From Clostridia bacterium (GTDB taxonomy: Bacteria; Bacillota; Clostridia; HGM11514), in the NCBI GenBank assembly GCA_045586685.1, contig JAZNAU010000039.1, positions 1-64,000 on the forward strand: DNA of 64,000 nucleotides. Direction: 5' to 3'. The notes under the pieces are model-generated. The model saw only the letters and a list, made by a program, of their open reading frames with translations, ran no database searches and was not told the DNA's origin. The stretch's first letter is position 1, and every line of letters begins with the position of its first letter. The position numbers and the translations under genes were made by a program. Shown piece after piece: positions 1 to 32,482 of this stretch.

Positions 1-121
1 TCAGTACCAACGTTTCATTTTGAAAAAGAACATCAAGTTCATCTCCCGCATTTATGTTCATTTTTCTTCTGTACTTTATAGGAATAACAAACCTTCCCAG
101 AGAATCTACTTCGTTTTTCAT
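1..121 (-). CDS. abrB: AbrB-family transition-state regulator paralog 1 (3' end runs off window edge)
   Basis: Manual translation MKNEVDSLGRFVIPIKYRRKMNINAGDELDVLFQNETLVL...; GGAGG RBS at ~128-132; very similar to the ORF at 29914-30147; not in ORF track. Confidence 0.85.
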   Translation of the reverse strand, partial: MKNEVDSLGRFVIPIKYRRKMNINAGDELDVLFQNETLVL

Positions 122-133
122 GTGGTCCCTCCA

Positions 134-313
134 ATAAAAAATGTGTGGCAATCAACGAAAGCCACACATGAAAAATGCACAGCTCTTCGTTAGAGTCACT
201 TAACTTAAATATTCTACTATACTTTCACGCATAGAGAAAAAGAGCGTACATTTTTACCGAAAGGTAACTTACGCGTGAAGAATAGTAAAATAAAATATTT
301 AGATTAAGTGACT
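134..313 (-). ncRNA. Candidate structured leader RNA/attenuator, copy 1 (long hairpin + pseudoknot/antiterminator switch + intrinsic terminator)
   Basis: Stem arms 304-313/194-203; loop strand 240-255 complementary to 171-187; terminator 136-169 identical to those at 30166 and 30366. Confidence 0.75.
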
Positions 314-319
314 ATTTTT

Positions 320-348
320 ATTATATCACAATTTACAATTTTTGTAAA
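320..348 (-). promoter_or_regulatory. Sigma-A promoter of leader copy 1
   Basis: TTTACA-N17-TATAAT with TG extended -10; same layout in the other two copies. Confidence 0.75.
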
Positions 349-26292: not shown

Positions 26293-26369
<77 letters not shown>

Positions 26370-27146: not shown

Positions 27147-27165
27147 AGTAAGGCAAAGTGTTGCC

Positions 27166-27274
27166 ATCTTCTTTCATCCAGACTATACTGTCGGTTTTGG
27201 AATTACACCAAATCATGCATACATGCTTGCGGACTATACCGCCGATCGGGAATTTCACCCTGCCCTGAAGACAT
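27166..27274 (-). ncRNA. FMN riboswitch (RFN element)
   Basis: TCTTCAGGGCAGGGTGAAATTCCCGATCGGCGGT...GGTGTAATTCC...ACCGACAGTATAGTCTGGATGAAAGAAGA matches the RFN consensus. Confidence 0.95.
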
Positions 27275-27516
27275 TGTATTCAACTGTTAGTATCATTATA
27301 CCAAAATAGTTATCCCTTGTCAAGGTTTGTAAAATTGTAATGAAATTGCAATTATCTTGTAATAACGACGTAATATGACAGGCTTCTTTCCCCTTCTTAT
27401 GTTACAGACATATTACGACAATGGAAAAAAATGTAAAAAACTTTTAAAAAACACTTGCAATAATTTCCAATATATGGTATAATATGGAATATAATAACAG
27501 GAAAAGGAGTATTATT

Positions 27517-29913: not shown

Positions 29914-30147
29914 TTATAAGGATATCTTGTTAATCTTTTTAATGCAATCACGGCATATCATTTTTTCCTCAAGAGAAATTAAATCATCCTCAGTTTCGCA
30001 GAAGATGCAAGTGGGATATGCTTTTTTAATCATTAGAGTATTCATTTGTAAACTGACATCCAATTCATCTCCGGCTTGTATATTCATTTTCCGCCTGTAT
30101 TTGACAGGTATGACAAAACGCCCTAAGGAATCAAGTTCATTTTTCAT
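29914..30147 (-). CDS. abrB: AbrB-family transition-state regulator paralog 2 (77 aa)
   Basis: LDSLGRFVIPVKYRRKMNI plus clostridial CIFC...ICRDC tail; GGAGG RBS before ATG 30147. Confidence 0.88.
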   Translation of the reverse strand: MKNELDSLGRFVIPVKYRRKMNIQAGDELDVSLQMNTLMIKKAYPTCIFCETEDDLISLEEKMICRDCIKKINKISL

Positions 30148-30163
30148 AATTTTTTTCCTCCAA

Positions 30164-30331
30164 ATAAAAAATGTGTGGCAATCAACGAAAGCCACACATG
30201 AAAAATGTACGTCTCTCGTTATTGTCACACAACTCAAATATTTCACCATTACACGCAATGAAATAAAACGTACATTTTTACCAAAAGAAAAAATTACGCA
30301 TAATGGATTTCTATATCGAATTGTGTGACAT
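30164..30331 (-). ncRNA. Candidate structured leader RNA/attenuator, copy 2
   Basis: Stem 30321-30330/30223-30232, loop strand 30265-30279 complementary to 30201-30215, terminator 30166-30199. Confidence 0.75.
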
Positions 30332-30335
30332 AATG

Positions 30336-30364
30336 ATTATATCACAAAAAATTTGATTTGTAAA
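30336..30364 (-). promoter_or_regulatory. Sigma-A promoter of leader copy 2
   Basis: TTTACA-N17-TATAAT with TG extension; -35 abuts the T-tract of copy 3. Confidence 0.75.
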
Positions 30365-30536
30365 TAAAAAATGTGTGGCAATCAACGAAAGCCACACATA
30401 AAAAACGCATAGCTCTCAATTATTGTCACATAATTTAATACACTATTATCACAAAGCGTATCCAAAAAAGAGCTTGCATTTTTATCAAAAAAATGCCGCT
30501 TTGCGATAACATTTTTATAATTAAATTATGTGACAT
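30365..30536 (-). ncRNA. Candidate structured leader RNA/attenuator, copy 3 (tandem, terminator exactly 200 bp from copy 2)
   Basis: Stem 30520-30535/30424-30439, loop strand 30469-30483 complementary to 30401-30416, terminator 30366-30399. Confidence 0.75.
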
Positions 30537-30540
30537 TTTG

Positions 30541-30569
30541 ATTATATCACAAAAATTTTTATTTGTAAA
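30541..30569 (-). promoter_or_regulatory. Sigma-A promoter of leader copy 3
   Basis: TTTACA-N17-TATAAT with TG extension. Confidence 0.75.
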
Positions 30570-30673: not shown

Positions 30674-32482
30674 TTATTTGTAGAGAGGTCCATAGGTCTG
30701 GCAAGCTCTGTAGTCCTGTCCTTCCTTGTCCATACCAAACGCATTCCATGCAGCGGGTCTGAAGATGTTGTCTTCGGGAACGTTGTGCATGCAAACGGGG
30801 ATTCTCAAGATAGAGCACAGGGTAATCAGGTCGGCACCGATATGACCGTAGGAAATAGCACCGTGGTTCGCACCCCAGTTATTCATTACATCATAAGCGG
30901 TCTTGAAGGGAGAGCCTTCTTTCCCGTCACATCTGGGAGCAAACCATGTGCAAGGCCAGGTGTAGTCGGTACGAGCCCAGATTTTATCAGAAACTTCATC
31001 AGGCAGTTCAATGGTCCAGCCTTCCGCAATTTGCAGAACAGGACCGATTCCCTTTACTAAGTTTAATCTCATCATGGTAGCGGGCATTTCTGCACGGGTT
31101 AAGAATCTGGAAGAGAAACCGCCTCCTCTGAAGTATCCCAAATCTGCCATATTCCAAGTGGTAGCAGCCATTACCTTGTCCTGATCCTCTTGGGTCATTT
31201 CATACCAAGGCTTCATGATGCCGTTTCCATTTTCATCTTTTACTTCACCGCAAGCATCCAGACAGCAAGCACCGGAGTTAATCAGATGAATAAAGCCGTC
31301 TGCATCCTTTGCCTTGCCTTTGATTTTATAGCCGGTGGCTTTCTTTACCGCATCACCGCTCCAGTAAGTTCTTACATCAGCAAACATCTGAGGTCTGTTG
31401 GTTAAGAGCTTACCGAACAGCATACAAAAGCTGTTTAATACGTCATTTTCTGTTGCCAGAATGTAAGGTTCTCTTGCACCGTTCCAGTCAAAAGAAGTGT
31501 TGAGCATTGCTTCGGGGAAGTCACAGTTGGGATAAAAGTCTGTCCACTGTCTCTGACCCTGGAAGCCTGCTGCAATGGCGTTGTGACCCACTCTTTCTTC
31601 TTCACAGCCTTCAGGCAGATTTTCATTTCCGTTTATCAAATCCTTGATGATACAAGCCATTTTTACAACAAATGCAAACTGCTCTTCTTTTTCTGCATCG
31701 GATTTCTGCATATCAACAGGGTTTTTATCAAAGCCCATGTTGCATTTTTCTTTTGCCCAAGCAAGAGCTTTCTGATATTCTGCTTCGTCATAGATGCCCT
31801 CTGACATTCTTCTGATGACTTCTACCTCGTCAACAGATTCCACTCTCATACCGAAATAATCTTCGATGAAAGCAGTGTCAATAATAGAACCGCCGATACC
31901 CATGCAGATAGAACCAATCTGTAAGTAAGATTTTCCTCTCATGGTGGCAGCTGCAACAGCCGCACGGCCAAACCGTAACAGCTTTTCTTCCACATCTGCG
32001 GGAATCTGACCGCACTCATCAATATTCTGAACGTCATGTCCGTAAATACCAAATGCAGGCAATCCTTTCTGTGCATGAGAAGCCAAAACGGCTGCTAAGT
32101 AAACCGCACCGGGACGTTCTGTTCCGTTAAAGCCCCAAACCCCTTTGATGGTGTTCTTGTCCATATCCATGGTTTCAGAACCGTAGCACCAGCAAGGAGT
32201 AACGGTCAGGGTAATGTCAACCCCTTCTTTTTTAAATTTATCAGCACAAGCAGCAGCTTCTGCAACACGGCCGATGGTGGTGTCTGCAATAACAACCTTA
32301 ACAGGTTCGCCGTTGGAGTATTTCAAGTTTTCCTCAAACAGTTTTGCGGCAGCTTTTGCCATTCCCATTGTTTGATCCTCCAAGGATTCTCTTACCTTCA
32401 GGGGACCTCTTCTTCCGTCAATGGTAGGACGGATTCCGATTACCGGATAATCTCCGATCAATCTGCTCTTTGCCATTTTCAT
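30674..32482 (-). CDS. fucI: L-fucose isomerase
   Basis: [41 protein letters not shown]. Confidence 0.95.

Follow-up and report, generated by a model that had tools for sequence, protein, structure and literature searches.

Loop-to-3'-strand pseudoknots placed beside an expression platform are known from the preQ1-II, SAM-II/V, ZTP and cyclic di-GMP (c-di-GMP)-II riboswitches, and in Clostridia the c-di-GMP-I riboswitches form multi-copy, sometimes tandem, leaders of genes for surface proteins and regulators. Tandem organization is also seen in small RNA (sRNA) genes, such as LhrC1-4, the csRNAs and Qrr, in which several homologous units stand in a row, share a conserved CU-rich loop and are each equipped with a promoter and a terminator. 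In the infC-rpmI-rplT (L20) leader of Bacillus subtilis, and in other classical terminator-antiterminator leaders that have an anti-antiterminator and in riboswitch platforms, a promoter-proximal RNA of about 170-200 nucleotides (nt) combines a terminator about 20 nt before the ribosome-binding site (RBS), a mutually exclusive antiterminator and a deciding long-range pairing (for the L20 leader, PMC1865079). In Clostridium difficile, inverted repeats flank the 195-base-pair (bp) invertible leader of cwpV, and its OFF orientation forms an intrinsic terminator, as laid out in the portion of PMC2784873 at hand. Here we describe an apparently hitherto undescribed leader RNA of Clostridia, three copies of which lie on the minus strand of a 64,000-nt stretch of contig JAZNAU010000039.1 from a Clostridia bacterium. 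We call this whole stretch the window and give coordinates as positions in it.

The new unit resembles the L20-type leaders in its size, its closeness to the promoter and the three features named above; it differs from them in having no match in Rfam, in the modeled relay of five helices set out below, in carrying the deciding strand atop a hairpin of about 40 bp and in occurring in 7 to at least 18 copies per genome before unrelated genes. Its conserved A- and U-runs could form base triples, as in pseudoknot riboswitches. However, it matches none of the Rfam families of the four riboswitch groups with such pseudoknots, the genes that follow it are not metabolic, its pseudoknot spans a very long and variable hairpin, and few of its unpaired nucleotides are conserved. 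From the c-di-GMP-I riboswitches, three of which stand in tandem in each of two related genomes (G128:C3:198768-199223 and G067:C29:21489-21944), it is set apart by a different structure and by the separate promoter of each tandem unit. With cwpV it shares inverted repeats between a promoter and a gene, there one for a cell-wall protein, and a conditional intrinsic terminator (PMC2784873, in part); however, the cwpV switch is a recombinase-mediated DNA inversion, whereas both folds of the new unit are open to a single RNA and the interior of its hairpin is conserved. Finally, LhrC1-4, the csRNAs and Qrr are stand-alone genes, whereas the last unit of a new array is fused to an RBS and a gene and has a conserved antiterminator. 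We favor, with a probability of roughly 0.7 for both parts jointly, a reading in which each unit is self-contained, with its own promoter and a leader RNA that works in cis as a conditional intrinsic terminator and represents a new class of attenuator, and in which the family defines a regulon of many genes, for surface or secreted proteins and for small regulators, in gut Clostridia.

Architecture and competing pairings of the leader

The three units in the window are homologous and share one order of parts: a promoter; a long hairpin (P1-P2) with the strands S', L and R towards its top; a strand S just upstream of the terminator; and the terminator, made of the arms T5 and T3 and a U-tract. 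Copies 3 and 2 lie head to tail, with 34 nt between their matches to the family model, and copy 1 lies apart from both. Hairpin energies are those of the minimum free energy (MFE) fold; ORF denotes an open reading frame and aa amino acids.

136 to 348, minus strand: copy 1
320..348, minus strand: copy 1 promoter, TTTACA-17-TGTGATATAAT, 11/12 match with TG
194..313, minus strand: copy 1 long hairpin, MFE fold -58.1 kcal/mol, z -8.1; P1 arms 304-313 and 194-203, S' 263-277, L 240-255, R 224-233
171..187, minus strand: copy 1 strand S, with L (pseudoknot) or T5 (antiterminator) as candidate partner
136..169, minus strand: copy 1 terminator; T5 161-169, T3 141-149, U-tract 136-141
127-132, minus strand: RBS after copy 1
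5-121, minus strand: AbrB-like ORF after copy 1, starting at 121 and truncated by the contig end
30366 to 30569, minus strand: copy 3
30541..30569, minus strand: copy 3 promoter, 11/12 with TG
30424..30535, minus strand: copy 3 long hairpin, MFE fold -61.0 kcal/mol, z -8.0; P1 arms 30520-30535 and 30424-30439, S' 30489-30497, L 30469-30483, R 30446-30459
30401..30416, minus strand: copy 3 strand S, candidate partner L or T5
30366..30399, minus strand: copy 3 terminator, with the copy 2 promoter directly after it
30166 to 30364, minus strand: copy 2
30336..30364, minus strand: copy 2 promoter, 11/12 with TG
30223..30330, minus strand: copy 2 long hairpin, MFE fold -56.5 kcal/mol, z -7.1; P1 arms 30321-30330 and 30223-30232, S' 30288-30303, L 30265-30279, R 30249-30259
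30201..30215, minus strand: copy 2 strand S, candidate partner L or T5
30166..30199, minus strand: copy 2 terminator; T5 30191-30199, T3 30171-30179, U-tract 30166-30171
30157-30161, minus strand: RBS after copy 2
29917..30147, minus strand: 77-aa SpoVT/AbrB-fold protein, the gene that predicted read-through of copies 3 and 2 would reach

A prior reading of the window from its letters alone (the sequence-only reading) had proposed most of these parts, and the computations bear it out on the following. The units are real, and it is the RNA of the strand it had named that is structured. The promoters are of the sigma-70 type (TTTACA-17-TATAAT), with TG before the -10 element and 11 of 12 positions matched in each copy. 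The hairpin begins a few nucleotides from the predicted start, none of 200 shuffled sequences folds equally well, and its arms diverge among the three copies with the pairing kept. The terminator, a 9-bp G+C-rich hairpin followed by U6, recurs as an exact 29-nt sequence in all three (0 mismatches; 0 occurrences in 100 shuffles), and its U-tract ends 4-5 nt from the RBS in copies 1 and 2. These terminators are missed by a simple terminator scan because their loop has 11 nt and the scan stops at 8.

The pairings were assessed on 110 sequences aligned to a covariance model of the family (alignment A9, model R2). P1 shows changes on both sides at 9/9 pairs with 97.4% of the cells paired, and the terminator at 9/9 with 99.7%, counts that lean towards the model since both helices belonged to it. 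The pairing of L with S, which lay outside the search model, shows both-side changes at 11 of 15 pairs and 94.1% paired cells. For each of the three helices none of 500 shuffles reaches any of five measures, and controls in which the strands were slid have 33-58% of their cells paired. The columns of the U-tract are 95-100% U, and P1 is rich in G-U pairs, with UG in 28 and 35 of the 110 sequences at two positions. The L:S duplex is also specific to each copy: its mean energy is -16.3 kcal/mol with the copy's own S, -12.4 with those of other copies and -6.0 with shuffled strands, the own partner being the better one in 103/110. The same holds within the source genome (cognate mean -18.7 vs non-cognate -12.2 kcal/mol), which argues for pairing in cis. 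Thus, the claim that a strand from the top of the hairpin pairs with one 3' of it holds in all three copies and across the 110 homologs. The accompanying idea of an open apical loop needs correction: L is at the top of the hairpin, but it is not open, as the upstream strand S' can pair with it.

S has a second potential partner in T5 together with the loop of the terminator. The sequence-only reading had seen this pairing in all three copies, whose antiterminator hairpins have -13.3, -13.1 and -16.0 kcal/mol. Across the homologs this S:T5 pairing averages -14.8 kcal/mol with the own partner, -10.9 with crossed and -6.7 with shuffled ones, and is better with the own one in 94/110; in the antiterminator register 83.1% of the cells are paired, as against 80.8% in shuffles and 30-66% when slid. 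The antiterminator is rich in G-U pairs, as expected if S must fit two partners. The mean energies of the terminator hairpin (-14.9 kcal/mol) and the antiterminator hairpin (-13.5 kcal/mol) place the competing folds close to each other. The two proposed, mutually exclusive folds, L:S plus terminator on the one hand and antiterminator on the other, are conserved in 110 homologs from many genera.

Two further pairings extend this scheme. S', a UGYAUUUUU-like strand a few nucleotides upstream of L, pairs with L to give an apical hairpin, P3 (MFE -9.1 kcal/mol vs -3.2 with a shuffled strand; better in 106/110), which the MFE fold of copy 3 contains. Alternatively, S' can pair with R, just 3' of L, which lengthens P2 (own -10.6 vs -5.2 kcal/mol with the partners of other copies). 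The negative control, L:R, gave no pairing signal. Pattern matches that looked like variants with an inverted loop proved to be the S' strand. We accordingly model the leader as a relay in which six strands form five helices (R:S', S':L, L:S, S:T5 and T5:T3) that exclude one another. In this model the invariant runs A5 and U5 pair in both P3 and L:S and form the loop of the antiterminator. Conservation of the L and S cores extends to their sequence and is not limited to their pairing. In alignments A8 and A9 two apical subtypes are evident: in subtype A GGUAAAAAUGCAUGCUCU pairs with GGAGYUAUGCAUUUUU, and in subtype B GAAUUUGRUAAAAAUGCAAAUUCC pairs with CGGAGUUUGCGUUUUU, often together with a different 5' hairpin that has an extra GGG...CCC stem. 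In one subtype, with the P1 sequence UUGCCAAGU... (loci L073, L074, L075, L076, L065, L054 and L071, from genomes of genus g1), the terminator is followed by a 20-30-nt stretch, UCUGCG...GUCAAGCCAAGG, that lies directly ahead of the RBS and shows complementarity to P1's 3' arm together with the start of S; judging from this complementarity, the two could form a helix that is available to read-through transcripts only.

As to novelty, a cmscan of the window against the 4227 models of Rfam 15, with a score at or above the gathering threshold as the criterion, returned only a flavin mononucleotide (FMN) riboswitch and a tRNA, both elsewhere. Between 29900 and 30700, the 17 matches at E-values up to 10 are at chance level (best 21.7 bits vs a gathering score of 49), and none of the six matches from a scan of 20 homologous loci lies over a unit. 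The FMN riboswitch (27162-27276, minus strand; 110 bits, E 1e-24) and the tRNA gene (26296-26369, minus strand) are unrelated to the units. No account of the RNA was found in the literature searched, passages of PMC8040213, PMC5737381 and PMC13613805 included, though it may be among the thousands and hundreds of candidate RNAs that are tabulated in the supplements to PMC8040213 and PMC5737381, respectively.

Three known kinds of RNA element were set aside. The sequence-only reading had noted the lack of a T-box motif, and the Rfam matches listed indeed include none to a T-box family. T-box leaders have a Stem I with a specifier loop and a conserved antiterminator bulge whose UGGN pairs with the NCCA end of tRNA. 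The only candidate for such a motif in the units, the UGG-like stretch UUUGG before A5, varies to GGU, GAU, GGC and GUU, and the bulge motif stays unchanged before unrelated genes; we rejected this class. The RNAs of type III toxin-antitoxin systems (ToxI) are promoter-less tandem repeats of about 36 nt followed by a terminator and an endoribonuclease toxin gene; the units, in contrast, measure 150-215 nt and have a promoter each, and of the 74 Pfam families that 147 downstream proteins match, the 25 commonest include none of the ToxN type. For a leader peptide, copy 2 offers a 6-codon ORF with ATG at its start, copy 1 has no ATG there, and no conserved AUG was seen in the alignments of the leaders.

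Distribution, promoters and downstream genes

The family was delineated with covariance models, R1 built from five close copies and R2 from 55; their calibration was shortened, so that E-values are rough. A BLAST search among relatives with a single copy had matched mostly the promoter and was replaced by these models, and a MAFFT alignment of 13 copies, which misaligned the terminators, was left out of model building. The search of Clostridia genomes and the tabulation of downstream genes that the sequence-only reading had called for enlarge its picture of three copies: the source genome holds seven, three on contig C39 and one each on C25, C47, C21 and C30. Distribution counts refer to genome samples, and absence means absence among the sampled genomes. 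In the order, represented by 12 genomes of a single family, 82 matches fall in 10 genomes; in the class, 42 of 151 genomes and 27 of 107 genera have matches, with up to 18 scored copies per genome; in a phylum sample of 151, matches are confined to the source genome and one other (G046), both of this class, and none of 147 sampled genomes outside the class carries one. A scan of 185,579 species genomes with a degenerate pattern gave at least 120 stretches, and 78 of the 80 loci listed from it hold a model match at E ≤1e-5 (L162 and L193 do not). The titles of the matched records point to metagenome-assembled genomes of gut and rumen Clostridia and name Oscillospiraceae, Acutalibacteraceae, Ruminococcaceae, Christensenellaceae, Eubacteriales and others. 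Several homologs from other genomes are likewise located at the ends of contigs. Probably the repeated leaders break assemblies, which makes the copy numbers lower bounds.

The link of the RNA to a promoter and a gene is general. Among 207 units with at least 50 nt of upstream sequence, 156 have a promoter matching at least 9/12 positions at a fixed position, compared with 6 of 186 control windows; 170 carry TG ahead of the -10 element, and in 133 the -10 element ends 4 nt before the start of the model, so that the RNA should start at the foot of P1. A same-strand ORF with a Shine-Dalgarno sequence begins within 160 nt after 160 of 211 units (a number that includes four boundary duplicates), at a median of 22 nt from the terminator and at no more than 30 nt in 105 of the 160. 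For known leader terminators, the distance to the start codon peaks at about 20 nt in the available part of PMC13613805.

The 160 downstream ORFs fall into 98 clusters, the largest comprising 26 secreted BspA-type leucine-rich repeat (LRR) proteins, 12 AbrB-like proteins and 8 small proteins with an xHDFG-like end and no match in Pfam. A signal- or transmembrane-like N-terminus is found in 60 of the 158 proteins scored, and Pfam matches among 147 include LRR_5 (18), MazE_antitoxin (9), Cu_amine_oxidN1 (8), Zn_Ribbon_1 (8), SLH (4) and HTH_3 (3). A family of acidic proteins of 76-96 aa, which Pfam does not match and whose C-terminal motifs resemble GACHDFG or RHDF, recurs after units in several families (L059:1692-1979, L082:1685-1936, L092:1252-1482, L160:420-650 and L238:1680-1907). 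The RNA is therefore not restricted to abrB paralogs, as had been supposed: in the source genome four copies at three loci precede AbrB-like genes, two of the seven precede genes for small non-AbrB proteins and one, on C21, precedes none, and in the class only 12 of 160 downstream genes are AbrB-like. Nor does an AbrB-like protein qualify as a partner of the RNA, since it does not track it: such proteins occur in 114 of 150 sampled genomes regardless of the presence of the RNA (42/151), and in family f17 three of five genomes have the RNA and none of the five has a match to the AbrB-like query. In the source genome, an AbrB-like/zinc-ribbon fourth paralog is found at C43:11-232 (plus strand), its start 11 nt from the contig end.

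In the window, the genes downstream of copies 1 and 2 are paralogs. The 77-aa protein combines an N-terminus of the SpoVT/AbrB type with CxxC...CxxC at its C-terminus; it matches Pfam MazE_antitoxin at E 2.3e-4 and 21.5 bits, under the 24.7-bit cut-off, and is 35-39% identical to ORFs widespread in the class. The genes preceding copies 3 and 1 end upstream of them, which makes the units separate transcription units. Before copy 3 this is a 602-aa ORF (30674-32482), presumably for L-fucose isomerase, a name that no search confirmed; a terminator-like hairpin was read by eye after it, though the terminator scan called none there. The scan did call a terminator before copy 1, at 378-400.

Complete units recur in tandem: 12 junctions in 11 arrays, from different lineages, join units that each have their own promoter. 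The orphan copy of the source genome (C21:27153-27307, plus strand) has no gene after it. The stretch of about 100 nt downstream of it contains an L-like motif together with a P1-like arm, which may be what is left of a second unit, and beyond them a hairpin that resembles the terminator of a convergent gene. In another genome a drum RNA (RF02958, 76.3 bits; L041:936-1053, contig G008:C6) lies about 200 nt upstream of an array of 3-4 units; drum is described, in the part of PMC5737381 available, as a motif of unknown function with a 3' terminator.

A proposed conditional terminator and its alternatives

The units have two features of attenuators, a G+C-rich hairpin with a U-tract between promoter and ORF and an antiterminator that uses the 5' arm of the terminator. 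In the mechanism we propose, transcription would start at the foot of P1-P2. In the OFF state, {S':R, L:S, T5:T3}, S' would pair with R, extending P2 and freeing L; L would then pair with S just upstream of the terminator, forming a pseudoknot that serves as anti-antiterminator, and T5:T3 with the U-tract would end the transcript as an RNA of about 165-180 nt. In the ON state, {S':L, S:T5}, S' would lock L in P3 and leave S free to pair with T5 and the terminator loop as the antiterminator, so that the polymerase would enter a gene that lacks a promoter of its own and has its RBS about 20 nt downstream. The choice would be made during transcription and may turn on whether L captures S ahead of the emergence of T5. 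Pairing would nucleate between the 5'-terminal GGAG of S and the 3'-terminal CUCU of L, which stays unpaired in P3; S would then displace S', to be caught by R, and with S engaged T5:T3 would form and transcription stop. Were L locked in P3, or its toehold masked, S would pair with T5 upon emergence of the latter and allow read-through. An effector could tip the nearly isoenergetic balance of P3 and S':R, and the A5 and U5 runs may ease the exchange of strands.

Several points weigh against this attenuator. The start site, the termination and the read-through are all predictions of the model, and the P1 and terminator counts, as said, lean towards it. The covariation of the antiterminator is weak, with both-side changes at 6 of 12 pairs, a level reached by 346 of 500 shuffles. 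By our geometric estimate, a 15-bp helix that joins the top of a hairpin of about 40 bp to a strand lying 5-8 nt away from the foot would call for a sharp bend. Few conserved unpaired nucleotides are left to form a ligand pocket, namely two within the 5' bulge, the U and G that precede A5, the UUU that follows L and the CA of the linker, and the downstream genes share no pathway that would hint at a ligand, their 98 clusters having no metabolic theme. Finally, the upstream units of tandem arrays and the orphan on C21 are of no obvious use in cis and would suit an sRNA.

The last point leads to a rather unlikely alternative: that the unit is a gene for an abundant trans-acting sRNA of about 170 nt, whose conserved L loop (A5-UGCA-CUCU) pairs with targets or titrates a factor, read-through being incidental or secondary. 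It would account for the strong promoter and terminator of every unit, for the arrays, recurring in at least 10 lineages, in which complete units stand in tandem, for the orphan copy without a downstream gene and for the 51 of 211 units with no ORF within 160 nt, some of which are tandem or at contig ends. The conservation of the L and S cores beyond pairing, and the -12 kcal/mol that non-cognate L:S duplexes still reach, fit it as well. However, an RBS and ORF follow on the same strand after 160 of 211 units at a median distance, 22 nt, too short for a promoter; a conserved, copy-specific antiterminator would be purposeless in a stand-alone sRNA; and L fits its own S better than the S of other copies. 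It is quite improbable, in turn, that the leader is unregulated, with a 5' hairpin that stabilizes the mRNA, a leaky terminator that sets low expression or insulates the gene, and alternative pairings that are by-products of repeated AUGCAU-like motifs. Hairpins at the 5' end can stabilize Gram-positive mRNAs, the hairpin here is in that place, no effector was found and the antiterminator covaries weakly. Yet five competing helices keep their cognate complementarity across more than 100 diverged copies, and their balanced energies are hard to explain without selection for switching.

Two more alternatives place the function, or its lack, in the DNA. Phase variation of the cwpV type, with the P1 arms as inverted repeats of a recombinase and an inversion that renders L non-complementary and abolishes the anti-antiterminator, would be suggested by the perfect 10-16-bp inverted repeats around some 100 bp between promoter and gene in the window copies and by regulated genes that are mostly for surface proteins, as with cwpV. 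We consider it very improbable: the interior is an imperfect hairpin with compensatory changes, the G-U pairs of P1 are mismatches as DNA and good pairs as RNA, L has the same orientation in 107-108 of 110 homologs, and a complete RNA switch is already present in the fixed orientation. Least credible is a dispersed mobile repeat with no regulatory role of its own, be it like a miniature inverted-repeat transposable element or a phage-derived cassette. The 7 to at least 18 copies per genome, the location of several at contig ends and the unrelated genes downstream would be in its favor; against these, the copies within a genome have diverged with their structure kept by compensatory change, their position relative to promoter and RBS is fixed, and the sequences that were read showed no sign of a transposase or of a target duplication, although no systematic search was made. 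A phage origin in particular was rejected, as among 2.9 million viral contigs the pattern matched nine times and the model confirmed just three of these.

Candidate effectors and the regulon

We searched five carriers, the source genome and four RNA-rich ones, all at least 97% complete, for likely effectors. Hfq (PF17209) is found in one of the five and CsrA (PF02599) in none, and their absence from most of the carriers searched speaks against either as a universal effector. GGDEF domains occur in all five, c-di-GMP-I riboswitches in four (the source genome being the exception) and c-di-GMP-II riboswitches in none. Thus, the new RNA is no simple replacement for c-di-GMP-I, and c-di-GMP as its ligand is neither supported nor excluded. 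We lean slightly, at less than even odds, towards a macromolecule other than Hfq or CsrA; a small molecule is somewhat less likely, and control that is purely kinetic or by growth rate is on a par with the latter. The leader is at most a candidate for a ligand-binding riboswitch.

More tentatively, the family might be a new, class-wide riboregulator of gut Clostridia that senses a global signal, such as a second messenger, a molecule from host or diet, or an RNA-binding factor, and through 7 to at least 18 cassettes per genome switches a set of surface proteins with BspA-type LRR, SLH and Cu-amine-oxidase-N domains, zinc-ribbon membrane proteins and small regulators; the terminated 170-nt RNAs, which would be abundant and would include those made by the upstream units of tandem arrays, may also act in trans. 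If the attenuator reading is true, it poses an orphan-effector problem, for which the five-helix relay gives testable mutant predictions. It would improve annotation, in that it would explain promoterless small genes and identify the units as sites at which assemblies break, and with hundreds of copies in the samples searched it would be a well-populated addition to the catalogs of RNAs. A single unlisted RNA switch would control cell-surface and small regulatory genes in a large share of the uncultured Clostridia of gut and rumen, and would offer a way into surface-protein regulation in organisms for which hardly any genetics exists.

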